DNA of 64,000 nucleotides from Candidatus Xenobia bacterium (GTDB lineage Bacteria > Acidobacteriota > Terriglobia > Acidiferrales > 2-02-FULL-67-57), in the NCBI GenBank assembly GCA_035573715.1, contig DATLZZ010000010.1, forward strand, positions 215,355 to 279,354. The letters run 5' to 3'. Shown in pieces: positions 8,332 through 60,907 of this stretch. The position numbers and the translations under genes are program-made. Under the pieces are notes generated by a model. It saw nothing but the letters and a program-made list of their open reading frames with translations, was not told the origin of the DNA and made no database searches. How positions within the stretch are numbered: position 1 is the stretch's first letter; each line of letters starts with the position of its first letter.

Positions 8332-9552
8332 CTAGTGGCTGCCACCCGGCTTGTTCGCCGCAGGATGGCCGGGGAAATGAACCGCCACGCCGCGCCAGCC
8401 GCTGTCGAGCGTCGCCGGCTCGCTGCGCAGCACGTAGCCGCTCAGACGCACCTCCACAGGATTCTTCTCGCCTCGTCCCTTGCCGAGCGCGCCGCCCGCG
8501 CCGTAGCCGTTGACCGGTAGCCGGACGGTGAGTTCGACGGGCTGCTGGGGCTCGTAGCGTGTTGGCGTCAGGAAGTAGGCGCCGTGGAAGCTGATGTTCT
8601 CCAGCTGCACCTGCTCCCGCAGGGCGCGGCCGTTGAGCCGCGTTTCGACCTCGACAGGCACCTGGGCGGCCATGCGCTGGCTCAGTCGGAGGCGGCGCGA
8701 GCCGACGCGTGTCTCGCCTCGCGCCACATCCATCACCATCCCTTCGGAAGCAGCCAGGGTGCGAGGGAATTCGCGTCGGGCCTGGCCGAGAATCTGGTCC
8801 ACCTCGTCGTCCGTGCGCCAGTGGTCGTGGTGGAAAAGGACAAGCTGCCTGACCCCGGCCTTCTTCGCCAGCCGCACCGCATCCTGCCAGGTGCCGTGGC
8901 CGACGCCGCGCTTGGCGCCGCGCAGCTCGTCGGCGAAATACTGAGCGTCGCAAACCAGCACGTCGGCGTCCCGAGAAAGCGCCACCAAAGCGTCGTCGAA
9001 TTCCGGCGCCCCGGGCTCGTGGTCGGTGGCGTAGACGATGGAGACGCCACCGCGATCGAGCCGGTAGGCCATCGAGCCGTCGGGATGGTTGAGCCGGCAG
9101 GTGCGGATGCGGGTGAGGCCGAGATAGTAGTCGGTCACCCACTCCAGTTCGCGCAGCGTGTAGGTGGCGTGGAGCTGGTCGAGCGGCTGCGGGAAAAACG
9201 GCGAGCGGAACAGGATGTCAAGCACGCCGCTGAGCGTGGCCGGCACGCTCTTGCCCGAGAGCGGCGGCCCGAAGAATTGCAGCGTGGTGTTGGCGTAGTA
9301 GAGCGGCTCGAAGAACGGCAGACCCTGGATGTGATCCCAGTGGTAGTGGCTGAGCAGGACGTTGACGTTGAGGTCAGCGCTGCGCCGCCTGACCAGTTCG
9401 TGGCCGAGGTCGCGGGCGCCGGTGCCGACGTCGAGGATAAAAATCTGGTCGCCGGTGCTAACCTCAAGGCAGGGCGTGTGGCCCCCATACCGCCACGCCC
9501 AGGGCTCCGGCGACGGGACTGAACCGCGCACTCCCCAGAAAGTCAGTTGCAC
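8332..9552 (-). CDS. MBL-fold metallo-hydrolase (PhnP/RNase Z-like) fused to C-terminal PilZ domain
   Basis: HxHxDH motif (SHYHWDH) and LTFWGVRGS N-terminus. C-terminal RxxxR (RLSQR) and NxSxxG (NISFHG) PilZ motifs. Start set at a GTG preceded by a GGGAGG Shine-Dalgarno. Confidence 0.75.
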   Translation of the reverse strand: MQLTFWGVRGSVPSPEPWAWRYGGHTPCLEVSTGDQIFILDVGTGARDLGHELVRRRSADLNVNVLLSHYHWDHIQGLPFFEPLYYANTTLQFFGPPLSGKSVPATLSGVLDILFRSPFFPQPLDQLHATYTLRELEWVTDYYLGLTRIRTCRLNHPDGSMAYRLDRGGVSIVYATDHEPGAPEFDDALVALSRDADVLVCDAQYFADELRGAKRGVGHGTWQDAVRLAKKAGVRQLVLFHHDHWRTDDEVDQILGQARREFPRTLAASEGMVMDVARGETRVGSRRLRLSQRMAAQVPVEVETRLNGRALREQVQLENISFHGAYFLTPTRYEPQQPVELTVRLPVNGYGAGGALGKGRGEKNPVEVRLSGYVLRSEPATLDSGWRGVAVHFPGHPAANKPGGSH

Positions 9553-9745
9553 GCTCTTGCCTCCCACGCGGGATGCTGCCACGTGCCCTCCGGCCTTTCT
9601 GTCGAACGTTCCCCCAGGCTGACTGCGCCCGCGCTGTCCCACAGGCGTGGAGGCGGGAAGAAACAGCCTAGCCCCGGCGAGACCGAAAAGTAACTGGTGA
9701 AGCGGCCAAACGAAGGACAGGGGGGATGCCTGTACCGCAGGGCAA

Positions 9746-10426
9746 TCAACGGCCAGTGCGGCCGGCGGCGCCCGGGCGCGACTGCCAGTAGAGCAGAATC
9801 AAATCGGTGCGGCGCTGCACGCCGAACTTGGCCAGCACGTTCGAGACGTGGAACTTGACCGTGCGCTCTGAGAGCGTCAGCCGCTGGGCGATTTCTTTGT
9901 TTGACATGTTGGCCAGCAGCGCCTCCAGCACTTCCTGCTCGCGCGGGCTGACGTAGGCGGGGCCGAAACTCCACCGCCGCGGGCCGAGGCCTTCCAGAAT
10001 CCAGTCGACGAACCGCGACAGCACCGGGCGCGGCACCCAGAACCCCCCGGCAGCGACGGCGCGCACCGCCTGCGCCAGTTGCGCCCGCGTCTGCGAGTAC
10101 GGCACCAAGCCCTTGGCGCCCAAGCGCAGGAGGGGAAAACTGTTGGCCTCGGTGAACTTCTCGGCCACGAGCAGCACGCGAGCCTTGGGTGAGCGCGAAA
10201 GGATGTTCGCCACCAGAGCTTCGGCGCCCGGGCGGGAGTCGGCGGCGTCAATCAGATAGAGCCGCGCTGAGGGCACCCGCCGGCGGCGAAGGTCGGAAGC
10301 CAGCCCCGACTCCAGGCGCACGGCGCGCACCGCGAAGCCGGCATCCGCCAGCAGGCGCTGCAGCTCGCTAAGCACCAGCGGATGCGAAGACAGCAAGCAC
10401 ACTGTCAGCCGGCCGCGGCCCGCCAT
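9746..10426 (-). CDS. LuxR-family response regulator (receiver-like domain plus HTH)
   Basis: C-terminal LuxR HTH (SPREQEVLEALLANMSNKEIAQRLTLSERTVKFHVSNVLAKFGV). Receiver-like N-domain with Asp (LYLIDAADS) but a weak acidic pocket. Confidence 0.7.
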   Translation of the reverse strand: MAGRGRLTVCLLSSHPLVLSELQRLLADAGFAVRAVRLESGLASDLRRRRVPSARLYLIDAADSRPGAEALVANILSRSPKARVLLVAEKFTEANSFPLLRLGAKGLVPYSQTRAQLAQAVRAVAAGGFWVPRPVLSRFVDWILEGLGPRRWSFGPAYVSPREQEVLEALLANMSNKEIAQRLTLSERTVKFHVSNVLAKFGVQRRTDLILLYWQSRPGAAGRTGR

Positions 10427-13754: not shown

Positions 13755-14288
13755 GTGACCACTGAAGTATTGGCAACCGAGCAAAGCAGGACGCCCGAGC
13801 GGCGTTACCTGAAGGCGACGCTGGCGGGCGCGGGCGGCATGCTGGCGCTGCTGTGGTTTCTGCTGGAGCAGCGCCCCGAGCTGGCGCAGCTTCTGCTGGA
13901 GCGCATCGTCATCGCCTGGGGACCGCAGTTCGTCATTCTGCTTCTCCTGTTCGGCTTTCTCTATCTGCTGGCCGACCGCTACGCGCCGCGACTCATCGCC
14001 GCCCAGCGGGAAACGGCGGTGGCCTTGCAAAGCCTGGCGCGCGCGGTCGAGCAGTTGGTGGCGCGGGAGAACTCGTTCCAGCGCGAGCAGGACGTGCTGC
14101 TGAACCACGTCGCCCGGCGCGTCGAAGCCATCCACAAGCTCCTCAACGGCCGTCTCCACCGACTGGCTCGCGCTTCTTCCGAGCCACCGCCGAAAAAGGC
14201 TCGCCCGCGTTCGGCACGGCCCAACCCGGGCCAGCGGTCCTCGAAGCCGGAGTTGGCAGTTGCAAATCACGTTCTTTCCTCTACTTGA
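13755..14288 (+). CDS. membrane protein (2 TM) with charged C-terminal tail
   Basis: Two hydrophobic helices (LAGAGGMLALLWFLL and VILLLLFGFLYLL). GTG start 4 nt after the previous stop. Confidence 0.5.
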   Translation: MTTEVLATEQSRTPERRYLKATLAGAGGMLALLWFLLEQRPELAQLLLERIVIAWGPQFVILLLLFGFLYLLADRYAPRLIAAQRETAVALQSLARAVEQLVARENSFQREQDVLLNHVARRVEAIHKLLNGRLHRLARASSEPPPKKARPRSARPNPGQRSSKPELAVANHVLSST

Positions 14289-14364
14289 CTCCCCTCCGCC
14301 TGCCCCCTACAATCTCCCTGTCGTTTGGGGTCGGGTTTCACCACAGAGGGCAGAGGAAACAACT

Positions 14365-15636
14365 TTGCGCATCACCTTTTGGGGGGTGCGAGGTTCTACT
14401 CCCACACCCGCGCGCCACACGTGGCGCTATGGGGGCAACACGCCGTGCGTCGAGCTGCGCCTGCCCGACCAACTGGTTTTGATTGACGCCGGCACCGGCA
14501 TCCGAGAGCTCGGCCAGCAGCTCCTCGCCGAAGCCCGCCCCGATTCGGCCGGTGCTCCGCCCAAGCCCATCAACGTCTCTCTGCTGTTCTCTCACTACCA
14601 CTGGGACCACATCCAGGGCCTACCGTTTTTCGCGCCCATCTATGCGCCCGGGAACACCGTTCGCCTTTACGGGCCGCGCTTCCGCGACGTCGCCGGCTCG
14701 TCGCTCTCGGCGGCGCTTCAAGCGCTGTTTTGCGCGCCGTTTTTCCCGGTGCTGGCCACCGACCTGCGCGCCGCCCATCCCATCGAAGAATTTGACGACA
14801 ACGCCAGCTTCTCGCTGGGCGATCTCCGGGTGCGCGCCTGCCGGGTCAATCACCCGCAGGGCTCGGTCGCCTATCGCTTCGAGCACGGCGGGGCTTCGGT
14901 CGTCTATGCGACCGACCACGAGCCGGGCAACGAGGAAATTGACCGGCGGCTGCGCAACTTCGCGCGCGGCGCCGACGTGCTTATCACCGACGCCCAGTAT
15001 TTCCCCGAGCAGCTTGTCGCCGAGCGCAAAGGCTGGGGCCACAGCTCGTGGCAGGCGGCCACCGAACTGGCGCGGGCGGCCGAGGTCAAGAACCTGATCC
15101 TCTTCCACCACGAGCCGACCCACAGCGACGAAGTGCTGGACGCGATTCTGGTTCGCGCCCGGGGGGCTTTTGCCAACACTCACTCGGCCACGGAAACGCT
15201 GGTGGTGGAGGTGCGCCGCCGGGAAGTGCTCTTCGCCAATCGCCCGGCGCGGCTCAGTCAGCGCGCCGACGTCCACCTGCCGGTCCACGTCGAGACCACG
15301 CAGGACGGCGCGCGGGTGCGGGAGGAGGCGTACCTGGCTAACCTCAGCTTCCACGGCGCCTATATCCTGAGCCCGCATCACTTCGAGCCCCAGCAGTCCA
15401 TCGAAATCGCCGTGCCGCTGCAGCCCGACCCGTCCGCCGCCACCGCTGCGCACCACGGGAAGGGAGCTCCGCCGGGAGAATTTCGCCTCAAAGGGGTGGT
15501 GCTGCGCACGGAGCCGCAGACGACCAACGGCCACTGGGAAGGCGTGGCGGTGATTTTCCCCGACGCCCAGGGCCGTGTCCCCGCCCAGCCGAAGGCGCCG
15601 CCCAAGCCCGGCCCCGACTCCGACACCACCTCGTAG
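14365..15636 (+). CDS. MBL-fold metallo-hydrolase (PhnP/RNase Z-like) fused to C-terminal PilZ domain (paralog 2)
   Basis: LRITFWGVRGS, SHYHWDH. PilZ motifs RLSQR and NLSFHG. TTG start with a GAGG Shine-Dalgarno. Confidence 0.75.
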   Translation: MRITFWGVRGSTPTPARHTWRYGGNTPCVELRLPDQLVLIDAGTGIRELGQQLLAEARPDSAGAPPKPINVSLLFSHYHWDHIQGLPFFAPIYAPGNTVRLYGPRFRDVAGSSLSAALQALFCAPFFPVLATDLRAAHPIEEFDDNASFSLGDLRVRACRVNHPQGSVAYRFEHGGASVVYATDHEPGNEEIDRRLRNFARGADVLITDAQYFPEQLVAERKGWGHSSWQAATELARAAEVKNLILFHHEPTHSDEVLDAILVRARGAFANTHSATETLVVEVRRREVLFANRPARLSQRADVHLPVHVETTQDGARVREEAYLANLSFHGAYILSPHHFEPQQSIEIAVPLQPDPSAATAAHHGKGAPPGEFRLKGVVLRTEPQTTNGHWEGVAVIFPDAQGRVPAQPKAPPKPGPDSDTTS

Positions 15637-16036: not shown

Positions 16037-16360
16037 TCAATCTTCTTCCCCCACTACACCGGCCTGCCATTCCTTCTGCACAGTGTCTCTGTAAACCAGC
16101 CAGCGGCCGCCGACGCGCCGGCCCGCCAACTGGCCCTCGTGGAGCCAGCGGTAAATCGTGTCGGGGGATTTCCCCAGGAGCTTCGCTGCGGCCACAGCCG
16201 AGATCAGCTCGCGCTTCTCCTGCTGGGCCAGCAGCGCGCGCGCCCTCTCGAACTGTGCGGACTTGGGCCGCTCTTCGTCCTTCGGCGGAAGCTTGGACGG
16301 CGGCGCAATCACCGCGAGCCTCTCCCCGTGGCCTGTCGCGCATCCATACTCGGCTCCCAT
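16037..16360 (-). CDS. HTH DNA-binding protein (excisionase/MerR-like)
   Basis: AAAKLLGKSPDTIYRWLHEGQLAGRRVGGRWLV helix-turn-helix. Start uncertain; overlaps the end of the Gam-like gene. Confidence 0.45.
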   Translation of the reverse strand: MGAEYGCATGHGERLAVIAPPSKLPPKDEERPKSAQFERARALLAQQEKRELISAVAAAKLLGKSPDTIYRWLHEGQLAGRRVGGRWLVYRDTVQKEWQAGVVGEED

Positions 16361-16998
16361 CGCTTTAGCGCCTCCCAGTTGAGTTCATAGAACCACTTCT
16401 CCCGTTGCTGCAACCGGACCCCGGCGCGCTGTAGCCTGCGACGCACTCGCGCCCCGGGCCCGTTCTTCCCCACGGCTTGGAGAAAGAACTGCCGCAAGGA
16501 GTCGCGATCGAGCTCCGTGCGGACGCGCAGGAACTGCTGGCCGGGGCGCCAATTGGCCAGAGCTCGCAAGGCGCGCGCTTCATCCTGGATGCTCACCGCG
16601 CGCGCCGTTCGATACCCCACGCGCCCAAACCGCAGCGTCCTTGACTTGCGCGCGTGCCCGTCGATCCGTGCCAACTCGTCGTGGCGGCGACAAAACTTCT
16701 CGATGGCCCTTTCCAGCCTCACCCGCTGGGACTCCAGCGGGGCCCGACGCGCGGAAATCTCCGATTCCAGTCGAGCCCGCGCCTCGGCCCCTGCTCTCTC
16801 GAGTGTGCCGAGTTGCAGGGTCAATTGCGCCAGTTGCAGGAGTGACTTCTCAACCTCCAACCAGCAGGAAACGGCCCCGCTCGCACGCGCCCTTGGCTTG
16901 CTTTGACCCGGGTGCGTGGCGCGGGGCTGGAAATGGTTCCAGGGGACGGGAAGGACTGGCTTTCGACTCGCCCGGCTACGGGAAGAAAGGGCTTGCAT
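16309..16998 (-). CDS. Mu Gam-like host-nuclease inhibitor family protein
   Basis: Coiled-coil N-region followed by KSRTLRFGRVGYRTARAVSIQDEARALRALANWRPGQQFLRVRTELDRDSLRQFF, which aligns with the Mu Gam core. Start uncertain. Confidence 0.55.
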   Translation of the reverse strand: MQALSSRSRASRKPVLPVPWNHFQPRATHPGQSKPRARASGAVSCWLEVEKSLLQLAQLTLQLGTLERAGAEARARLESEISARRAPLESQRVRLERAIEKFCRRHDELARIDGHARKSRTLRFGRVGYRTARAVSIQDEARALRALANWRPGQQFLRVRTELDRDSLRQFFLQAVGKNGPGARVRRRLQRAGVRLQQREKWFYELNWEALKRWEPSMDARQATGRGSR

Positions 16999-17031
16999 GT
17001 GACCCACCAATGAGCTACTATCGACTCGAAA

Positions 17032-17053
17032 GGTGTACACCTAACAGGTGTAC
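17032..17053. promoter_or_regulatory. candidate operator: perfect palindrome GGTGTACACC plus adjacent half-site AGGTGTAC
   Basis: Located in the 63-bp divergent intergenic region between the Gam-like gene and the cI-like repressor gene. Confidence 0.5.
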
Positions 17054-17061
17054 TTTGTCAA

Positions 17062-17832
17062 ATGGTTTCTGCGCGCGACAGTTGGCCAAGCAAAATCAAG
17101 CAGTTACGGGACTCGCTTGGCCTCTCGCAGGAGCAGTTGGCCCGCCGGCTTGAGGTAACCAAGAAGACGATTGCGGAATGGGAGCAGGCGCGGCAGGTAC
17201 CGAGCGCAGAGCGAGCTCTGCAACTGGCGCGGTTGGCCGCCCCGGGAGAGTTGCGTCGGTGGTTGATTCGGCAGGCGCTCGATCGGATCGGCGCCGATGA
17301 GGGTTTGCTTGAGGATGCCCTGGGCGCGCGACGGCGCGGCCGCCAGGCGCCGCTGCCGGTTGCCGGGTTGCGGGTAATTCCTTCCGCGGATCTGAGCGAC
17401 CGCTTTCGAGCGCTGGAGGGGCTGAGCGACTTTGTCCCGATTCCGTTGCTGCGGGACGCGGCGGCGGCGGGCTCACCGCGGGAAATTTCCGAGGAGGACA
17501 TCGAAGGCTACGCGATGATTCAATACGCGTGGTGCCCGAACCCGGCCGAGTTCACTTGCGTGCGGGTTCGCGGCGCTTCGATGTCGCCGATTCTGCTGGA
17601 TGGGGCGGTGGTGGCGATTGACCACTTGCAGCGCGACCCGCAGGCGCTGCACCAGAAAATGGTTGCCGCCCGCGTGGAGGATGGCGTGACCATCAAGTGG
17701 CTCAACCTCCAGCCCGACGGCTCTCTGCTCCTTGTCCCGGAGAACAAGAACTACCCTGCCATCCCGCTGCCGCGCACGCCCACAAACCCCATCGTGGGCC
17801 TGGTGGCCTGGTGGTGGAACCGACAGCGCTGA
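17062..17832 (+). CDS. phage cI/LexA-type repressor (XRE HTH plus S24 peptidase domain)
   Basis: N-terminal HTH (LRDSLGLSQEQLARRLEVTKKTIAEWE). C-terminal S24 domain with the Ser (GASMSP) and Lys (KWLNLQ) catalytic dyad context. Confidence 0.75.
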   Translation: MVSARDSWPSKIKQLRDSLGLSQEQLARRLEVTKKTIAEWEQARQVPSAERALQLARLAAPGELRRWLIRQALDRIGADEGLLEDALGARRRGRQAPLPVAGLRVIPSADLSDRFRALEGLSDFVPIPLLRDAAAAGSPREISEEDIEGYAMIQYAWCPNPAEFTCVRVRGASMSPILLDGAVVAIDHLQRDPQALHQKMVAARVEDGVTIKWLNLQPDGSLLLVPENKNYPAIPLPRTPTNPIVGLVAWWWNRQR

Positions 17833-24443: not shown

Positions 24444-26762
24444 CTAGAAGTGCCAGCTCAAACGGCCGGAAACGACGCGCCGCGCCGAGAACTGCACCGG
24501 CGTGGTCTCGCTCTCTTTGGCAATCTGGTAAATGTCATTGCCGAGGTTGGTCACATTGAACTCGAAGTCCAGCCGCCGCGCCTCGCGCTGCCACAGCGCC
24601 ACGCCCGTCGAGAAATCCGCGGTGAAGTGCTGCGGCAGACGCTCGAACGTGAGCACCTCCTCGCCATTCACCTCGACATGCTCTTCCTTCGGCGTGCCGC
24701 TGCCGTAGCGCAGAATGAATCCTGCTCGGAGGTTCCGCCACGGCCGGCGATAAAAGATCATCGCCGTCCCGGTGTGGCGCTGGTCGAAGGCTGGGCGGAT
24801 GCGCTCGCCTTCTTGCAGCTCTTCATCCAACAGGCCGCCGGTAATGGGGCCGAAGGAGGTGGCGCGCGCCAGCGCATATTGCAGCCGCGCCTCCAGTCCC
24901 AGCCGCTCCAGATGCCGCAGGCCCACCGTCCGCTCAATCCCCTTTGCGTGCGTGCGGGCGAAGTTGATGGGCACGAACAGTCGCGTGTTGCTGATCTCGC
25001 CGTTCTCGAACCCGTCGTCCCCGCGGCGCGCGTAGGCGTTGACCTCGAAGAAAACCTTCTCGCTCATCTCCTGGTGCCACCCGACTTCGAAGTAATGTTG
25101 CCGGTACGGCTTGGCTGCGCCCACCTAGTCCTCCTCGTCGTGGGGGGCGTTGCCGAGGAAGCTCGCCAGCACCACCCACTCCAGCGGCGGAGGCGTGAAC
25201 AGACGGTCATAGGCGAAGTGAATCACCGAGCGGCTGCGCGGGACGTAGTAGGCCACCCCGACTCGCGGGCTCACCTGCGCGAACGACTCCACCAGGTTCA
25301 ACTGGTCCCAGCGCACTCCTGCGTCCACCGTGAAGTTCCGGAACGGCGAGAAGTGGTCCTGCACGTAGAAGCTGAACTGCCCACCCACGTCCCGTCCGCG
25401 GAAGGAAAACTCAGAGAGGTCGGTCACTGTGTGGAATGGTTGGAGGACCACGTCTGTTGCGAGATGGTGGTCGTCGTGCACGCGCTCATCGAAGGTGAAG
25501 CTCTCGCGCAGACGGAACAGGGCCAGGTTCACACCGGCCTTCACCGTGTGGCCGCCGCGGGCATAGGTCAGGTCGCTCTTGACTCCTGTGGTCAGCGTGC
25601 TGCGCGAACCGTCGCCGTAAGGCGTTGCCGGATCGCTCGTACCTACCAGGCGGTCGGACACCACGCGCTCATACGCGGAAGTCGCCACCAGCCAGCGCGG
25701 CGGGAAGATGTGCTGCCAGCTCAGAATGGCGGTCTGTGCCCGCAGTCGTCGTGTGGCGTCGCGCCCTTCGAGTTCCTCGTCCTCGGTGTTGGGCAATTCG
25801 AAGTTGGTTCCGCCGCCGGTGAGGAACAGTTTGAGCAGGTTCTTCTCTCCCTGATAATCCACCTACGCTGTGCCCTCCACGCCGTAGCCGATGTCATGCA
25901 GCTCGTTTCGAATCGGCGGGTTGAGGTAGCGTCCTGACTCCGACGTGCTGGCAAAACAGTAATAGCCCCAACGCCCGGCAGCGCCGCCGTAGTCGGCGCT
26001 CAAGTCGCGGTTCAGCGCCGTTCCCACTCCCGCGTTCACCGAGCCGTGCCCATCCAGCGAGCGTCCCGATCGCGTCGCAATGTCCATCACTCCGCCGAAG
26101 CGGTTGCCGAACTCCGCCGCAAGCCCTCCAGAGAGGAAGTTGACCGAGTCGAAAATCTGCGGGCTGGCCGCGGGCGAGAAATGCACCTGCGGGTTGTCGA
26201 GAAACGACACCCCGTTGATGAACTGGTGCAACGAGAGCTCGTTGCCGCGGAAGTGAATGAAGTTGTCGTGGCTCAGCGTCGCCCCGGGCGCAATGAGTTC
26301 CGTCAGCGATGCCACGTCCTTCCGCGCCGGCCACGGCAGCTCGTCCAGTTGTTGCCGGGTGAGAAGCCGCGCCGAACCCGTCTGTCCCGGGTCGAGGTCT
26401 GTGTACTCGGCCCGCACTTCCACCTCCTGCTTCTCGCTGAGCCGGGGCGCCAGTTCAACACTCAGCACAACCGCCTGCCGCGGACGCACGGCGAGGTCGT
26501 AGTTCGACACGAAGAAACCGCTCGCCTCCACGTGCAACGTGCAGCTCCCTGGTTCCACCAACGGAAACCGGAAGCTTCCCTGAGCATCGGTTTGAGTCCG
26601 CAGCGGAGTCGCCGCGGTTGACGGACGCAACTCCACTTGCGCCCCCACCACCGGCTTCCCGCCGCGGTCGTGGACTTGCGCATGGCGTTGCAATTTACGC
26701 CATTCGGTTTTGAAAAGCAAGAAGCGTAGGCCGTGTCTTGCAATTGGCACTGACTGTTGCAC
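24444..26762 (-). pseudogene. TonB-dependent receptor interrupted by two in-frame TAG codons; no signal peptide
   Basis: Three consecutive same-frame ORFs: CarboxypepD_reg-like domain plus plug, barrel, and C-terminal ...SWHF. They are separated by TAG at 25863-25865 and 25125-25127. No signal peptide in any upstream frame. Confidence 0.6.
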
Positions 26763-26864
26763 ATATGCAACAGGCTGCTCGCAGCGCCCATCATGTACCT
26801 TATAGATACTGAATATGTTGCTGTTGTTGCTTCGTTTGGACCCAACCTTGCATCATAACCTGAG

Positions 26865-35920: not shown

Positions 35921-36778
35921 ATGGTCGCGTTCTTCCTTTGTGCCTCCGTGTCTTTGTGGCCCGCCCCCTTGTCGGCGCAGAAGCCGGTGGACCGCGTGGA
36001 ACTCGAGTATCGCCCACCGACGCTGCTGGTGGAAGCCAAGGTGAACGGCAAGGGGCCGTTCTGGTTCGCCTTCGATACCGGCGCCAGCACCAGCCTGATT
36101 GACGCTCGCGTGTCACAACGGCTGAAGCTGAAGCCCGAGCAGCGGCCCGATCGCGAAGGGCCGTACTTCACCCGCGCGCGCACGCTGGCGGTGGGGAGAG
36201 CTAAGGCGCGCGACTTGGAACTGGTCATCCGCGACTTCGCGCCGCTCTCGGAGCGCATCGGGCGCGAGGTGGCCGGCATCGTCGGCTACAACTGGATGGA
36301 GCAGTTTGTGTTTGAGATTGATTACCGCAGCCTTCGGCTGACCATTTGGCCAAGCACCACAGAACTCATCCCGCGCGCGGACCAGTTTCCTGTGCCGCTC
36401 GAGCTGCGCTCGGTGCGCGGCCTCACCGGCGCCATCATTTATGTCCCGGCGCAGATGGAAGGCAAGCACCGCTGTCCGGCGGAAATTGACACCGGAACCG
36501 ACCTGGGAATACTCGGGCGGCAGATGGCGCTGGAGCTCGGCGTGGACGTCAACCGGCTCGGCGGGCAGCGGGAGCGCCCGCGGCATGAGGTGCGGCGGCT
36601 CGATGTCGCCGGGCGCACTTATGCGAATGTGCCCTTCTACGTCGACCCGCGCCGGGGCGCCGACGCCAATCCCTACGCCCAGTGCATCCTCGGCAACGAG
36701 GTGCTGAAAGAGTTTGTGCTGACAATTGACATCCCGCGCCGCCGCGCCTTCTTTCGCTGGCGACTGCCGCCGCCTTAG
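35921..36778 (+). CDS. secreted retropepsin-like aspartic protease (two DTG motifs)
   Basis: Signal peptide. FDTGAS and IDTGTD catalytic motifs. Confidence 0.7.
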   Translation: MVAFFLCASVSLWPAPLSAQKPVDRVELEYRPPTLLVEAKVNGKGPFWFAFDTGASTSLIDARVSQRLKLKPEQRPDREGPYFTRARTLAVGRAKARDLELVIRDFAPLSERIGREVAGIVGYNWMEQFVFEIDYRSLRLTIWPSTTELIPRADQFPVPLELRSVRGLTGAIIYVPAQMEGKHRCPAEIDTGTDLGILGRQMALELGVDVNRLGGQRERPRHEVRRLDVAGRTYANVPFYVDPRRGADANPYAQCILGNEVLKEFVLTIDIPRRRAFFRWRLPPP

Positions 36779-36831
36779 GCGACTCTTGCGAGGCGTGCGC
36801 GGTTTCGCTATGCTGCGCCTTCCGAAAGCCC

Positions 36832-37728
36832 ATGCCTGAGACTCTCAGTCCCGGAAAGCTGAAAACCGAGGACGAGCACCGCCGCGACATCTGCCTGGTC
36901 GGCCGCTGGATTCACGCCCGCGAGTACGTGGCCGCCACCGACGGCAACCTTTCGGTGCGGCTGGACAACCAGCGGGTCCTGGCCACGCCGACGCTGATGT
37001 CGAAAGGCATGATGGAGCCCGACGACCTGGTGGTGGTCGATTACCAGGGCAACAAGCTCAGCGGGCGGCGCAACGCCTCCAGCGAAATCGCCATGCATCT
37101 GCTGATTTATCGTCGCCGCCCCGACGTGAACGCCGTCGTGCATGCTCACCCGCCCACCGCCACCGGCTACGCCGCCGCCGGGCTGGCGCTCAACCAGGCG
37201 CTCATCAGCGAAGTGGTGCTGGCGCTGGGCTGCATCCCGCTGGCGCAGTACGGCACGCCCGGCACGCCGGAGCTGTCCGATGCGTTGAGCCCGCTGGTCG
37301 GCAGCTACGACGCCCTGCTGATGGCCAACCACGGCGTCGTCACCTACGGCACCGACCTGCTCACCGCCTACATGCGGATGGAGACGGTGGAGCACTTCGC
37401 GCGCATTTCGCTGGTGACGCATCTGCTTGGCCGGCAGGTGCTGCTTTCCCGCGAGGAGGTGGAGAAGCTCGGCGAAGCGCGGCAGAAGTATTTCGGCAGC
37501 CTGGGAGCGCCGGTGGCGCCGCTGACGGAGTCCTGCCCGGTGGCGGCGAATCCTTCGCCGCCGCCGGCCGTGGCTTCCCCTCCGGCGACGGAGCGGAAGC
37601 CGGCCCACCCGTCCGCGGGCGGACGGATTGGATCGGTGCCTCGCGGCCCGCGGGACCGTCTCTGGGTGACGCAGGACGAGCTTGAAGCTCTCATTGACGA
37701 AGCCGTGAAATCTGGTAGAGTTCGCTAG
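36832..37728 (+). CDS. class II aldolase/adducin-family protein with C-terminal Pro-rich linker and amphipathic helix (BMC encapsulation peptide-like)
   Basis: Aldolase_II core (HAHPP, metal-binding His). C-terminal [17 protein letters not shown] linker followed by [19 protein letters not shown]. Confidence 0.8.
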
Positions 37729-37748
37729 ACCCGACAGGAGGAACCGGT

Positions 37749-38045
37749 ATGGGTGAAGCGCTGGGCATGATTGAGACTCGGGGGTTCGTGGCCATGATCG
37801 AGGCCTCCGACGCCATGGTGAAGGCGGCCAAGGTCACGCTGGTGGGCTGGGAGAAAATCGGTTCGGGCTACGTCACCGCGCTGGTGCGCGGCGACGTAGC
37901 GGCGGTGAAGGCCGCCACCGACGCCGGCGCTGCCGCGGCTCGCCGCGTCGGCGAACTGATTGCGGTGCACGTCATCCCGCGGCCGCACCCGTCGCTGGAA
38001 GACGTGCTGCCCATCGGCAAGGCCGCCGAGCTGGTCGCCCGCTAG
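37749..38045 (+). CDS. BMC-H shell protein (PduA/CcmK/EutM family)
   Basis: Canonical BMC domain ([25 protein letters not shown]). Confidence 0.9.
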
Positions 38046-38058
38046 GCGCGCTGCTCCC

Positions 38059-38080
38059 TCCGCCCAGCGGCCACGGCCGC
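38059..38080 (+). terminator. intra-operon hairpin CCCAGCGGCCACGGCCGCTGGG after the BMC-H gene
   Basis: Perfect 10-bp stem with a 3-nt loop, 14 nt after the BMC-H stop. No strong T-tract, so possibly a partial terminator or attenuator. Confidence 0.4.
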
Positions 38081-38176
38081 TGGGCCGCGCGGCCTTGTCG
38101 GGAGGGCACGACTCTTGTTGTGCCGTTCCGCGGGTTCTTTCTGTGGGGCTTTAGCCCCTGAGGGTTTTTCAAGCCT

Positions 38177-38479
38177 ATGCTCCTCGCTCGAGTCGTCGGA
38201 ACCGTCGTCGCCACCCGCAAAGACCCTCGCCTGGAAGGGAAGAAGCTGCTCATCGTGCGCACTATGACGCCGGACGGGAAAGAAGACGGCAACTATCTGG
38301 TCGCGGTGGACACGGTCCACGCCGGCGCGGGCGAAAAGGTTCTCATCGTCCAGGGCGGCTCGGCCCGCATGGCCGACGGCTGCAAGGACCGCCCAGTGGA
38401 CACCGCCATCATCGGCATCGTCGACACCGTCCGCCTCGACGAGCAGCCCGCCGCCGTCGCGGCCTCCGCCCCCAAGTAA
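38177..38479 (+). CDS. BMC-P vertex protein (EutN/CcmL family), paralog 1
   Basis: MLLARVVGTVVATRK ... characteristic EutN/CcmL fold sequence. Confidence 0.85.
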   Translation: MLLARVVGTVVATRKDPRLEGKKLLIVRTMTPDGKEDGNYLVAVDTVHAGAGEKVLIVQGGSARMADGCKDRPVDTAIIGIVDTVRLDEQPAAVAASAPK

Positions 38480-38752
38480 ATGCTGCTCGGCAAAGTCATC
38501 GGCAACGTGGTTTGCACGGTGAAGAACCCTGTGCTGGAAGGAATCAAGCTGCTGGTGGTGCAGCCGCTCGACCGCGCCGGCAAGCCGAAAGGCAAGCCGA
38601 TGATCGGGCTCGATGCCGTGGGCGCGGGCGCCGGCGAGACGGTTTACTGGTGCCGCGGGCGCGAGGCCAGCTTCGTCTGGTATCCCACCGAGGTGCCAAC
38701 GGAGTGCACCATCGTCGCCATAGTCGACCGCGTAGAAACAGAGAAAGGGTAA
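38480..38752 (+). CDS. BMC-P vertex protein, paralog 2
   Basis: MLLGKVIGNVVCTVK ... EutN/CcmL family. Confidence 0.85.
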   Translation: MLLGKVIGNVVCTVKNPVLEGIKLLVVQPLDRAGKPKGKPMIGLDAVGAGAGETVYWCRGREASFVWYPTEVPTECTIVAIVDRVETEKG

Positions 38753-38848
38753 CCACAGATTCACACAGATGAACACAGATAAGGAACGCCGACAAAAGCA
38801 GGGACTGTTTGTGTTTTTCCTCTGTGTGTATCTGTGTGCATCTGTGGT
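38753..38848 (+). promoter_or_regulatory. ~27-bp imperfect inverted repeat (CCACAGATTCACACAGATGAACACAGA ... TCTGTGTGTATCTGTGTGCATCTGTGG) between BMC-P2 and BMC-P3
   Basis: CACAGAT-repeat palindrome with a ~40-nt loop, directly between two shell genes. Confidence 0.5.
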
Positions 38849-38860
38849 TTCGAATTCTCC

Positions 38861-39130
38861 ATGCTGATTGGCAGAGTCATCGGCGAGGTGTGGGCGACGC
38901 AGAAGACGCCCTCGCACGAGGCGCGCAAGTGCCTCTACGTGCAGCCGCTGGCGCTCGACGGCGCCGACCGCGGCGACCCGATCCTGGCGCTCGACGCGGT
39001 GGATGCCGGCGTGGGCGACCGCGTGCTGGTGGTCACTGAAGGCTACTCGGCCATGACGGCGGTGGGCCGCCCCAATTCGCCCATCGATATGGCCGTCGTC
39101 GGCGTCGTCGACGCGGTCGAGCTCGACTAG
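38861..39130 (+). CDS. BMC-P vertex protein, paralog 3
   Basis: MLIGRVIGEVWATQK ... EutN/CcmL family. Confidence 0.8.
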   Translation: MLIGRVIGEVWATQKTPSHEARKCLYVQPLALDGADRGDPILALDAVDAGVGDRVLVVTEGYSAMTAVGRPNSPIDMAVVGVVDAVELD

Positions 39131-51404: not shown

Positions 51405-51863
51405 CTACTCCAGCGAGGCCAGAACCTCCGCCGCGTGTTTCCCGGGTCTCACCTTGTCGAACACTTTCTTCACTTTGCCGTCCGGCCCGATGAGCACCGT
51501 CGTGCGCACGATGCCCATGAACTTCCTCCCCAGAAAACTCTTCTGCTGCCACACGCCATAGGCCTTGAGCATTCCCTTCTCGGGGTCGCTCAGCAGCGTG
51601 AAGTTCAGCTTGTGTTTCTTCTTGAACTTCGCCAGCGTCTCCGGCTTGTCCGCCGAGCAGCCCAGGACGATGGCGTTCTTGCGGGCAAAGGCGTCGCGGG
51701 CGTCACGAAACTCGTGCGCCTCAATGGTTCACCCCGGCGTCATCGCTTTGGGGAAGAAAAACAGGACCACGTGGTGCCCCTTGAAGTCGCTCAGTTTGAG
51801 GCTCGTCCCTTCGTCGGTCGTCAGCCTAAACGCCGGCGCCGCCGCCCCTTCCTTCAACCCCAT
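51405..51863 (-). CDS. bcp: Bcp-type peroxiredoxin with in-frame TGA (candidate selenocysteine) at the peroxidatic Cys position
   Basis: Manual translation gives MGLKEGAAAPAFRLTTDEGTSLKLSDFKGHHVVLFFFPKAMTPG-U-TIEAHEFRD...LLSDPEKGMLKAYGVWQQK...VLIGPDGKVKKVF. TGA at 51729-51731 replaces the Cys of the conserved TPGCT motif. GGAGGG Shine-Dalgarno 6 nt before the ATG. The ORF track misses it because the reading frame is split by the TGA. Confidence 0.65.
51695..51725 (-). promoter_or_regulatory. candidate bacterial SECIS hairpin (GGCGCACGAG UUU CGUG(A)CGCC) 8 nt downstream of the UGA
   Basis: Stem-loop with a U-rich apical loop immediately 3' of the in-frame UGA on the mRNA. Confidence 0.4.
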
Positions 51864-51887
51864 CGGAGTCCCTCCTCAACGCGGATT

Positions 51888-52259
51888 CTACCACTTCCCG
51901 TTTCGCCGCCGGGCGAACCGCAGCCCGTGTACGCCCAGGATTGCTAGGCAGATCGCCACCGCCACCCACGTCAACAATTGCTGCGACACGTCGGGGTAGA
52001 TGACCGACTCGAGATAGTGGATCAGGAAGGATTCCGTGTAGGGCGTTTGGCCCGCGCGCTGGAGCGACCAGTTTTCGAGCAGCGTCAGCGGGCACGGCCA
52101 CAGCAACAGCTCAATGAGAATCCCGTAGACCACCGAGCCGATGTGCAGCCAGCGCAGCAGCGGTCGCCCGCGGGTCGCCAGCCATCCCAGCAGCACCCAC
52201 AGAATCCACGCCGCGTGCAGCGTAAACGCCGCTATCGCCAGAACGTGGTAGATTCTCAC
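51888..52259 (-). CDS. DUF2784-like small membrane protein
   Basis: Four predicted TM helices. Start set at an internal GTG. Confidence 0.5.
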   Translation of the reverse strand: MRIYHVLAIAAFTLHAAWILWVLLGWLATRGRPLLRWLHIGSVVYGILIELLLWPCPLTLLENWSLQRAGQTPYTESFLIHYLESVIYPDVSQQLLTWVAVAICLAILGVHGLRFARRRNGKW

Positions 52260-52298
52260 GGCCGTTGAACCGATTGTATCCCGTCGGAGGCTCGCTCG

Positions 52299-53612
52299 AT
52301 GGCTGAATTCTTGCGCCGCTTCTTCCAGCTCGACGCCCACGGCACCACGGTGCGCCGCGAAGTCGTCGCCGGCGTCACCACCTTCGTCACCATGGCCTAC
52401 ATCATCGTGGTCAACCCGGCGATTCTCTCCGCCGCCAAGATTCCCGCCGGACCTTCAATGGTGGCGACGATTCTCACCGCTGTCTTTGGCACGCTGCTGA
52501 TGGGCTTCTTCGCCCGCCGCCCCTTCGCCATCGCCCCCTACATGGGCGAGAACGCCTTCATCGCCTACACAGTTGTCGTGGGGCTCGGTTACACCTGGCA
52601 GCAGGCTCTCGCTTCGGTCTTCCTCGCCGGTGTGCTATTCATCCTCTTGACCGTGGCGCGGGTGCGCCAGTGGCTGGTCGAAGGCGTCCCGGCCGGCCTG
52701 CGCTACAGCTTCGCGGTCGGCGTCGGCCTGTTCATGACCTTCATCGGCTTGAACGAAACCGGCATCGTGCGCCTCGGCGTCGAAGGGGCGCCGGTGCGCA
52801 TGGGCGCGTTCACGTCCGCGCCGGTATTGATCTCGCTCCTCGGTTTTGTGCTGATCGTGGCGATGATGATTCTCAAGCTGCGCGGCGCCATGCTTCTCGG
52901 TGTGCTGGCGACCGCCGCCATCGCCTTCGCCACCGGTGTCGCCCAGGCGCCCGATGCCTGGCTCAGTGCCCCGCCCAGCCTCGCGCCCATCTTCTGGCAG
53001 CTTGATTTCTCCGCGCTCTGGAGCGTCGGGTTTCTGGCGGTGATGCTGACGACGTTCGTGATGGCGTTCGTGGATACGATGGGCACGCTCATCGGCGTCT
53101 CTGCTCGCGCCGGATTCCTCGACGCCGAAGGCAATCTGCCGCAGATTGAGCGCCCCATGCTGGCCGATGCGCTCGCCACCACGTTCGCTGCCGCGGTGGG
53201 AACGACTACCGCCGGCGCTTACATCGAATCCGCCACCGGCGTCGAAGCCGGCGGCCGCACCGGCTTGACCGCCATCGTCACGGCGCTGCTGTTTTTGCTG
53301 GCGCTCTTCTTCGCGCCCGTTGTCGCCGCCATTCCGCCGCAGGCCTACGGCCCGGCGCTGATCGTGGTTGGCTTGCTGATGGTCAGTCCGATTACTCGCG
53401 TCAACTTTGATGACCTCACAGAATTGGTGCCTGCGTTCGCTACCGTCGCGCTGATGAGCTTCAGCTTCAACATCGGCGTCGGCATGACCGCCGGCTTCGT
53501 GCTCTATCCTTTTTGCAAGCTGGTCGCGGGCCGCGCTCGCGAAATCAAGCCCGGCCTCTGGGTTCTCTTCGCGCTCTCGCTGCTCTTTTACGCCTTCTAT
53601 CCCTATCGCTAA
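52299..53612 (+). CDS. NCS2-family nucleobase permease (AzgA/purine permease-like)
   Basis: ~13 TM helices and conserved NCS2 motifs. Confidence 0.85.
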   Translation: MAEFLRRFFQLDAHGTTVRREVVAGVTTFVTMAYIIVVNPAILSAAKIPAGPSMVATILTAVFGTLLMGFFARRPFAIAPYMGENAFIAYTVVVGLGYTWQQALASVFLAGVLFILLTVARVRQWLVEGVPAGLRYSFAVGVGLFMTFIGLNETGIVRLGVEGAPVRMGAFTSAPVLISLLGFVLIVAMMILKLRGAMLLGVLATAAIAFATGVAQAPDAWLSAPPSLAPIFWQLDFSALWSVGFLAVMLTTFVMAFVDTMGTLIGVSARAGFLDAEGNLPQIERPMLADALATTFAAAVGTTTAGAYIESATGVEAGGRTGLTAIVTALLFLLALFFAPVVAAIPPQAYGPALIVVGLLMVSPITRVNFDDLTELVPAFATVALMSFSFNIGVGMTAGFVLYPFCKLVAGRAREIKPGLWVLFALSLLFYAFYPYR

Positions 53613-53661: not shown

Positions 53662-53736
53662 TGGCTGGGGCGCCTGGATTCGAACCAGGACCTCTGGATT
53701 AACAGTCCAGCGTGCTGCCAGACGCACTCCGCCCCA
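53662..53736 (-). tRNA. tRNA-Asn (anticodon GTT), CCA encoded
   Basis: Cloverleaf: acceptor TGGGGCG/CGCCCCA, D-arm GTGC..GCAC, anticodon stem CTGGA/TCCAG with loop CTGTTAA, T-arm CCTGG TTCGAAT CCAGG, discriminator G plus CCA. Confidence 0.9.
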
Positions 53737-60522: not shown

Positions 60523-60571
60523 TGCTTGACTCGGCGCGCCAACCGACCTAGCATCAACACCAGAGGGGAGC

Positions 60572-60907
60572 ATGGGGACGACCGGCACATATGCTTCCGG
60601 AATCGACCGGCGGGAAGATCACCGCACCACTTTTTTTGCCGAAGCGGAATATGAGTGGGGCGGCAACAAAATGCGCGCCCGCATCCTCAACCTCAGCCTG
60701 GGCGGAATGCTGATGGAGACGCGCGCCCCGCTTCCGGCGATGGCCCAGTTCGTCGCCACGCTGCATCTGGCGGAAGGGCCGCCGCTGGAAGCAATCTGCG
60801 TGGTGAAGCGCCTGGTGCCTGGCGTGGGCATGGGGGTGGAGTTCGTCGACCTCAAGCCCTCCGACCACATCCGCCTGCGGCGCATCGTCGAATCCCTGCC
60901 GCACTAG
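60572..60907 (+). CDS. stand-alone PilZ-domain protein
   Basis: RxxxR (REDHR) and NxSxGG (NLSLGG) motifs. Confidence 0.7.
   Translation: MGTTGTYASGIDRREDHRTTFFAEAEYEWGGNKMRARILNLSLGGMLMETRAPLPAMAQFVATLHLAEGPPLEAICVVKRLVPGVGMGVEFVDLKPSDHIRLRRIVESLPH

Follow-up and report, generated by a model that had tools for sequence, protein, structure and literature searches.

Does an in-frame UGA at the catalytic codon of a bacterial peroxiredoxin (Prx) gene end the protein, or is it read as selenocysteine (Sec)? The question is raised by a bcp gene on the minus strand of a 64,000-nucleotide stretch of contig DATLZZ010000010.1 (positions 215,355 to 279,354), assigned to Candidatus Xenobia bacterium and referred to as the window hereafter. 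The gene very probably encodes a Bcp/PrxQ thioredoxin-dependent thiol peroxidase in which the peroxidatic Cys is replaced by Sec through insertion directed by SelB and a selenocysteine insertion sequence (SECIS). The features concerned are given below in window coordinates.

51405..51863, minus strand: complete coding sequence of the predicted Sec-containing Bcp/PrxQ protein, 152 codons including Sec45, stop codon TAG at 51407..51405 (translation, Pfam, NCBIfam)
51731..51729, minus strand: in-frame UGA, codon 45, at the peroxidatic Cys position (TPG-U-T), the proposed Sec codon (reading, translation, alignment with Xanthomonas campestris BCP, XcBCP)
51720..51699, minus strand: candidate bacterial SECIS hairpin GGCGCACGA-GUU-UCGUG-A-CGCC (folding, -11.9 kcal/mol)
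51657..51659, minus strand: codon 69 (TGC), the only cysteine of the protein, in LGCSAD at the C-terminal end of strand β4 (translation)
51875..51870, minus strand: Shine-Dalgarno-like GGAGGG, six nucleotides upstream of the bcp ATG (read from the sequence)

Direct reading and translation of the minus strand from the ATG at 51863..51861 yields 152 codons down to the TAG, with the TGA at codon 45 as the sole interruption. The whole translation (51863..51405) reads MGLKEGAAAPAFRLTTDEGTSLKLSDFKGHHVVLFFFPKAMTPG up to this TGA and TIEAHEFRDARDAFARKNAIVLGCSADKPETLAKFKKKHKLNFTLLSDPEKGMLKAYGVWQQKSFLGRKFMGIVRTTVLIGPDGKVKKVFDKVRPGKHAAEVLASLE from there to the stop codon; it begins with MGLKEG, has FFFPKAMTPG and TIEAHEFRDA directly before and after the TGA, and further on contains LLSDPEKGMLKAYGV. 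In the mechanical list of open reading frames (ORFs) the same frame appears merely as two fragments of 44 and 55 amino acids. An initial annotation, made from the letters of the window, had described a complete minus-strand Bcp/Prx frame that the ORF track splits at a single TGA in place of the peroxidatic Cys, with a GGAGGG Shine-Dalgarno sequence before the ATG. All of this is borne out by the translation, by the Pfam and NCBIfam matches and by the alignment with XcBCP.

Protein searches were run with the stop at codon 45 replaced by Cys. The Pfam family AhpC-TSA (PF00578) is matched with an E-value of 3.3e-37 by residues 6-133, covering profile positions 2-123 of 124, and Redoxin is matched as well. 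The NCBIfam equivalog model for Bcp, NF006960, scores 165.6 bits and is passed at its cut-off of 140. Below their cut-offs remain the models for PrxU (NF040737, 37.5 bits, cut-off 270) and Prx-SUH (NF045827, 22.3 bits, cut-off 298). The best solved relative is XcBCP/PrxQ (PDB codes 5iph, 5iiz and 3gkk; E-value about 5e-24 for residues 12-151), with whose peroxidatic Cys48 codon 45 aligns. The peroxidatic P-x3-T-x2-C motif takes the form P38-KAM-T42-PG-U45, and Pro38, Thr42 and Arg120 do not vary in an alignment of the window protein with its 120 best database homologs (121 sequences). Judged by these matches, the window gene encodes a peroxiredoxin of the Bcp/PrxQ subfamily.

The UGA is not peculiar to the window. 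Scanning of one genome per species and of the Joint Genome Institute (JGI) metagenomes gathered 160 loci, and in these the peroxidatic codon is TGA in 32 and TGC or TGT in 120. Together with one further locus (L161), TGA is found in 33 loci besides the window, none of which carries another stop or a frameshift. About one fifth of the retrieved Bcp loci carry UGA, a share to be read with the bias of the retrieval towards relatives of the query. The closest relatives (68-81% identity; L081-L088 and L001-L003) have TGA throughout. As sources of the TGA-type loci, metagenome-assembled genomes (MAGs) of Candidatus Acidiferrales and Terriglobia, other Acidobacteria, Gemmatimonadaceae/Gemmatimonadales, Caldilineaceae and a MAG labelled delta proteobacterium are recorded, so that the loci span Acidobacteriota, Gemmatimonadota, Chloroflexota, delta-proteobacterium-like MAGs and metagenomes. 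L161 (positions 489-950 of JGI contig Ga0534155_0300080) is represented in public by protein P0003 with Trp at the active site (FFPKALTPGWTNEA); as the underlying DNA is TGA, the Trp of the public record is a gene caller's mistranslation of the proposed Sec codon.

Translation continues to leave its mark beyond the UGA. Compared with 11 UGA-type orthologs, the window gene differs mostly at codon position 3 downstream of the TGA, and likewise upstream of it; for L001 the differences at codon positions 1/2/3 amount to 15/14/47 downstream and 11/9/23 upstream. This third-position bias after the TGA places the 107 downstream codons under purifying selection at the protein level. Elsewhere in the window TGA is an ordinary stop codon, ending 14 of 56 candidate ORF segments. 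Under the stricter 120-nucleotide filter the bcp TGA alone, among those of the window, has strongly coding-like in-frame sequence both before and after it, and no second convincing TGA-split ORF was found in the 64 kb. An alternative genetic code with UGA as Trp or Gly was considered and rejected, since TGA terminates many ORFs of the window.

The Sec forms make up at least three groups of a neighbour-joining tree, with Cys forms between them. This scattered distribution matches the repeated Cys-to-Sec conversion reported for Prx (PMC1794560).

Directly downstream of the UGA the message can fold into a hairpin as expected for a bacterial SECIS (bSECIS) element. The hairpin begins at the ninth nucleotide past the UGA, leaving an 8-nt spacer, and consists of a stem of 5+4 base pairs with a bulged A on the 3' side and the apical loop GUU (51711..51709), with 17 nt from the UGA to the loop. 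The published bSECIS consensus (PMC13188914) calls for an apical loop of 3-9 nt, an upper stem of 4-16 bp, a UGA-to-loop distance of 16-37 nt, and a G as the first or second nucleotide of the loop, usually with G or U after it, at a minimum free energy of -7.5 kcal/mol or lower. The window hairpin agrees with all four consensus criteria: its loop is GUU, its stem has 5+4 bp, the spacing is 17 nt and the energy -11.9 kcal/mol. Of 30 distinct UGA-type sequences, 26 (87%) have a hairpin that complies with these rules at -7.5 kcal/mol or less, versus 36 of 105 Cys-type sequences (34%; Mann-Whitney p 8e-6 for the comparison of the two types, not corrected for phylogeny). Among 29 distinct UGA-type sequences, pairing in the register of the window occupies 76.6% of cells, with 32-49% in a slid register; the Cys-type sequences pair in the window register in 55.4% of cells. 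Compensatory changes are seen at two pairs of the UGA-type sequences, pair 17-27 occurring as AU, CG, GU and GC and pair 20-24 as AU and GC. In the UGA-type genes of other clades the hairpin is shifted, with its loop 21 nt past the UGA. A hairpin starting 8 nt after the UGA, as predicted in the initial annotation, is thus present at 51720..51699; of the SECIS check suggested there, the published bSECIS consensus yielded agreement and Rfam no matching model. Taken with the conservation of the UGA across phyla, the purifying selection downstream and the use of TGA as an ordinary stop elsewhere, this SECIS-consensus hairpin supports the selenoprotein call made at the outset.

Several observations weigh against this interpretation. 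The 71-nt region folds no better than its dinucleotide shuffles (z = 0.08), and compliant hairpins are not specific to UGA-type genes, a third of the Cys-type genes having one. The latter is in part due to the codons of the conserved E-A-x-E-F-R-D-A segment, which pair among themselves. The Cys-type locus L014 (413-457) even carries a nearly identical hairpin, GGCGUGCGA-GUU-UCGCG-A-CGCC, after its Cys codon, and other Cys-type loci are similar; in such loci the hairpin would be either a fossil SECIS or a by-product of the conserved codons. The covariation is modest and is confounded by coding constraint as well as by sequence relatedness. Around bcp no Rfam model matches, with only chance hits to small nucleolar and small RNAs at E-values up to 10. 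Furthermore, no selA, selB or selD domain was found by Pfam on all candidate ORFs of the 64-kb window, which says little for a multi-megabase genome, and neither ARAGORN nor Rfam found a tRNA-Sec there, tRNA-Asn being the only tRNA. All in all the hairpin is good supporting evidence for a SECIS element, short of proof. A weaker idea is that a hairpin pre-formed by the E-A-x-E-F-R-D-A codons could have predisposed Bcp to repeated Cys-to-Sec conversion in soil phyla.

Further searches for the Sec machinery gave the same picture. At the gathering threshold, Rfam reports only the tRNA-Asn for the whole window, and ARAGORN finds no tRNA-Sec in 32 UGA-type loci. In motif searches, neither the window nor L001-L160 yielded a real match to the SelA pyridoxal phosphate site, the SelB G1 box or the SelD GCGCK motif; the SelA and SelB motifs were checked afterwards against Solibacter sequences. 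An 89-nt 'tRNA-???' returned by ARAGORN (L109:1324-1412 and L112:4372-4460, minus strand) is a probable false positive, as it matches neither the tRNA nor the tRNA-Sec model of Rfam. Both contigs are delta-proteobacterium-like, and in each the Sec-bcp gene lies some 0.7 kb downstream of this 'tRNA-???'.

The lineage of the window is plausibly Sec-competent, as far as its relatives allow a judgement. The RuvB protein of the window is 95% identical to NCBI MAG proteins and 77-87% identical to proteins of Candidatus Acidiferrales, Terriglobia or Acidobacteria, and the relatives of RuvB and Bcp point to a place in Acidobacteriota (Terriglobia/Acidiferrales). In Acidobacteria the Sec trait is documented by the SelA, SelB and Sec-FdhA sequences of Solibacter usitatus (PMC1794560 supplement). 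A search with the Solibacter SelA returns thousands of close homologs (72-100% identity), of which the named ones belong to Acidobacteriia/Bryobacteraceae; none of the named matches is specifically Acidiferrales, and the support is accordingly for the broad lineage only. The rarity of selenoproteins in high-GC soil bacteria of this kind, as asserted in the initial annotation, was overstated in view of the Sec trait of S. usitatus (PMC1794560), the abundance of SelA homologs and the proportion of UGA-type Bcp loci.

How else might the UGA be accounted for? That bcp is a pseudogene, or that its TGA is a sequencing or assembly error for TGC or TGT, would mean that the chain ends at residue 44 and that no working enzyme is made. 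A single substitution does separate TGA from either Cys codon, gene callers treat the frame as broken, and the Sec machinery is not seen in the 64-kb window. Such an error or decay would, however, have to recur identically in 33 loci that were assembled independently, come from different samples and phyla and show no other stop or frameshift, and it is at odds with the third-position-biased divergence past the TGA, a sign of continued selection on the full-length protein, and with a set of catalytic residues that is intact throughout. The account is extremely improbable, and on the sequence record pseudogene, sequencing error and alternative genetic code alike can be considered excluded for practical purposes. 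A second rival is that a standard amino acid, Cys or some other, is inserted at the UGA; the product would in that case be an ordinary Cys-Bcp made by recoding. This would require an opal-decoding tRNA-Cys of the selC* type, possibly with a SelB paralog, or an acidobacterial allo-tRNA suppressor. A selC* tRNA-Cys(UCA) that mimics tRNA-Sec has been reported, as have allo-tRNAs in Acidobacteria that are possible nonsense suppressors (PMC5389517); a SelB-like factor would fit the SECIS-like hairpin, and a second window gene with two in-frame TAGs, described below, hints at stop-codon oddities in this genome. The known selC* cases, however, come from anaerobic Firmicutes, Thermodesulfobacteria, Nitrospirae and Proteobacteria and not from Acidobacteria (PMC5389517), and no opal-decoding tRNA of this kind is present in the window or the UGA-type loci. 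A general opal suppressor conflicts with the 14 ordinary TGA stops of the window, and opal suppression leaves unexplained why the UGA is confined to the catalytic redox residue in four separate clades, which is the classic signature of Sec. Standard amino acid insertion is for these reasons very unlikely.

There is likewise only a slim chance that the UGA serves mainly as a selenium-dependent regulatory stop, read through by few ribosomes while Cys-type peroxiredoxins elsewhere carry the main load. Bacterial Sec insertion is generally inefficient and dependent on the selenium supply, and many genomes hold both Sec and Cys paralogs (PMC1794560). No paralog is found in the window, however, and sequence data are silent on the efficiency of read-through; moreover, a regulatory stop of this sort is a quantitative variant of Sec insertion and not an alternative to it.

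Under the preferred reading, insertion of Sec by way of SelB and SECIS, decoding and catalysis can be outlined as follows. From the features described above we infer decoding by SelB and tRNA-Sec, incorporation of selenium, the reductant and any role of Cys69. During translation, the hairpin 8 nt past the UGA would act as the bacterial SECIS element: the Sec-specific elongation factor SelB, loaded with Sec-tRNA(Sec), would bind its GU-containing apical loop and bring the Sec-tRNA(Sec) to the UGA in the ribosomal A site, whereupon the remaining 107 codons would be translated without termination. In the folded protein the selenolate of Sec45, placed in the pocket of Pro38, Thr42 and Arg120, would attack the peroxide and be converted to the selenenic acid. 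The latter could be reduced directly by thioredoxin or a similar reductant in a cycle of the 1-Cys type, or it could form a selenenylsulfide with Cys69 that is then reduced.

The second of these routes draws attention to the cysteine inventory of the protein. The +5 position in helix α2, which may hold a resolving Cys in atypical 2-Cys Bcp, is His50, and a Lys is found at the position of the α3 resolving Cys84 of XcBCP. The 120 best homologs comprise 86 with the +5 Cys only, 33 with the β4 Cys only, one with neither and none with both, and in all 19 distinct acidobacterial UGA-type proteins the β4 Cys is the sole cysteine. The placement of Cys69 within the strand is taken from a confident model of P0002, a Cys-type homolog of 59% identity (predicted local distance difference test, pLDDT, 96.9). 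On this sequence and model evidence Cys69 may be put forward as a candidate partner or resolving thiol for Sec45. The strict mutual exclusivity of the +5 and β4 Cys and the status of Cys69 as sole cysteine in the 19 acidobacterial UGA-type proteins suggest an extended proposal, namely that the acidobacterial Sec-Bcp clade and its nearest Cys-type relatives might form an undescribed mechanistic subclass of Bcp/PrxQ, with the resolving residue relocated to β4 and a Sec45-Cys69 selenenylsulfide as intermediate. The proposal is tentative and, on the whole, rather unlikely. The β4 Cys arrangement as such may be new. The absence of a resolving Cys bears on the mechanistic class and not on the family assignment, as 1-Cys Bcp proteins still belong to the subfamily.

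Upstream of bcp lies a second gene on the same strand:

51888..52340, minus strand: gene for a DUF2784 membrane protein, upstream of bcp (Pfam PF10861, E-value 5e-22)

Its stop codon is located 24 nt ahead of the bcp ATG, and a search of the gap between the two genes revealed nothing resembling a promoter. The DUF2784 gene and bcp are likely co-transcribed, the former being context outside of the recoding signal. The tRNA-Asn(GTT) of the window (53662-53736, minus strand) is situated 1.8 kb upstream of bcp, with the DUF2784 gene and a divergent gene for a permease of the xanthine/uracil family in between; in eight relatives (L002, L003 and L083-L088) this tRNA is found directly upstream of the Sec-bcp gene.

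The above-mentioned second gene with in-frame stop codons is a TonB-dependent-receptor-like frame of about 800 codons (24444-26852, minus strand), with TAGs at 25863-25865 and 25125-25127 and no frameshift. An N-terminal CarboxypepD_reg domain is followed by a central outer-membrane β-barrel and the terminus ...GRLSWHF, and the composition is coding-like across both TAGs. Either two amber mutations have made the frame a pseudogene, or its amber codons are read through. Among 56 stop-to-stop segments of the window, chosen by the GC content of third codon positions (GC3), TAG is used 30 times, TGA 14 times and TAA 12 times. TAG as the commonest stop looks unusual at 65% GC, the counts including the two internal TAGs and at least one doubtful ORF.

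Elsewhere in the window, a phage-like regulatory cluster at 16037-17832 contains an HTH_17 excisionase-like protein, a Mu Gam-like protein and a repressor with helix-turn-helix and S24 peptidase domains (LexA/CI-like), and is possibly a prophage remnant. The stretch 36730-39130 holds a gene for a class II aldolase and, after it, three EutN/CcmL genes in tandem, which code for microcompartment vertex proteins; no shell hexamer gene was recognised near them within the window. The genes at 8332-9798 (minus strand) and 14104-15636 (plus strand) are paralogs, each with a metallo-β-lactamase-fold domain followed by a similar C-terminal region, in which a weak PilZ match (Pfam, E-value 9e-5) is found for the 8332-9798 paralog only. 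A separate small PilZ protein is encoded at 60530-60907.

The Sec-bcp gene does not overturn current understanding. It is invisible to ordinary ORF calling, and one ortholog is publicly mistranslated with Trp, as described above for P0003. Because ordinary ORF calling misses or mistranslates UGA-type bcp genes, the selenoproteomes of the abundant soil phyla Acidobacteriota, Gemmatimonadota and Chloroflexota are probably undercounted. The gene would imply the use of selenium in peroxide defence and would tie the selenium supply of soils to the oxidative-stress tolerance of a dominant soil lineage. If functional, the Sec/β4-Cys arrangement would extend the Bcp/PrxQ scheme by a further position of the resolving residue and would offer natural Sec/Cys enzyme pairs for a comparison of selenium and sulfur catalysis.

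In order to compare the window gene to known systems, the Sec-containing peroxiredoxins have to be considered first. Prx proteins with a TxxU motif in PF00578 have long been recognised as a bacterial selenoprotein family with many members (PMC1794560, PMC2398784, PMC13188914), as had been noted in general terms in the initial annotation. A survey of 2006 lists 12 Prx selenoprotein genes and infers five Cys-to-Sec events (PMC1794560), the Global Ocean Sampling (GOS) data contain 253 Sec-containing Prx (PMC2398784), and a review of 2026 counts Prx among the experimentally supported selenoprotein families (PMC13188914). The window gene shares with this family the domain, the T42-P-G-U45 motif, in which the UGA occupies the peroxidatic position, the SECIS hairpin inside the coding sequence after the UGA, and Cys-type homologs that are far more numerous. 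In contrast to the broadly defined family, it belongs to the Bcp/PrxQ branch, comes from an acidobacterial host resembling Acidiferrales and has a Cys at neither of the described resolving positions. Like PrxU (Eubacterium acidaminophilum type) and Prx-SUH, the product is a thiol peroxidase of the AhpC/TSA superfamily with, in this case predicted, Sec; with 152 residues it is considerably shorter than PrxU (about 233 residues) and stays far below the cut-offs of both models.

The fold and the Pro/Thr/Arg active-site triad are common to the window protein, XcBCP/PrxQ and E. coli Bcp. Unlike in XcBCP, UGA takes the place of Cys48, Lys that of Cys84, and a Cys is located in strand β4 instead; compared with the E. 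coli type, the +5 resolving Cys is replaced by His50. The hairpin resembles the SECIS element of E. coli fdhF in its position inside the ORF directly after the UGA, in the GU of a small apical loop and in a single-nucleotide bulge of the stem. The bulge is, however, an A on the 3' side in the window and a U on the 5' side in fdhF, and sequence similarity is limited to the GU of the loop. Counting the U of UGA as 1, the loop G of the window is +21, and that of fdhF is G23. By comparison with all of these systems, the window gene adds a member to the known Sec-Prx family and will be no surprise to specialists.

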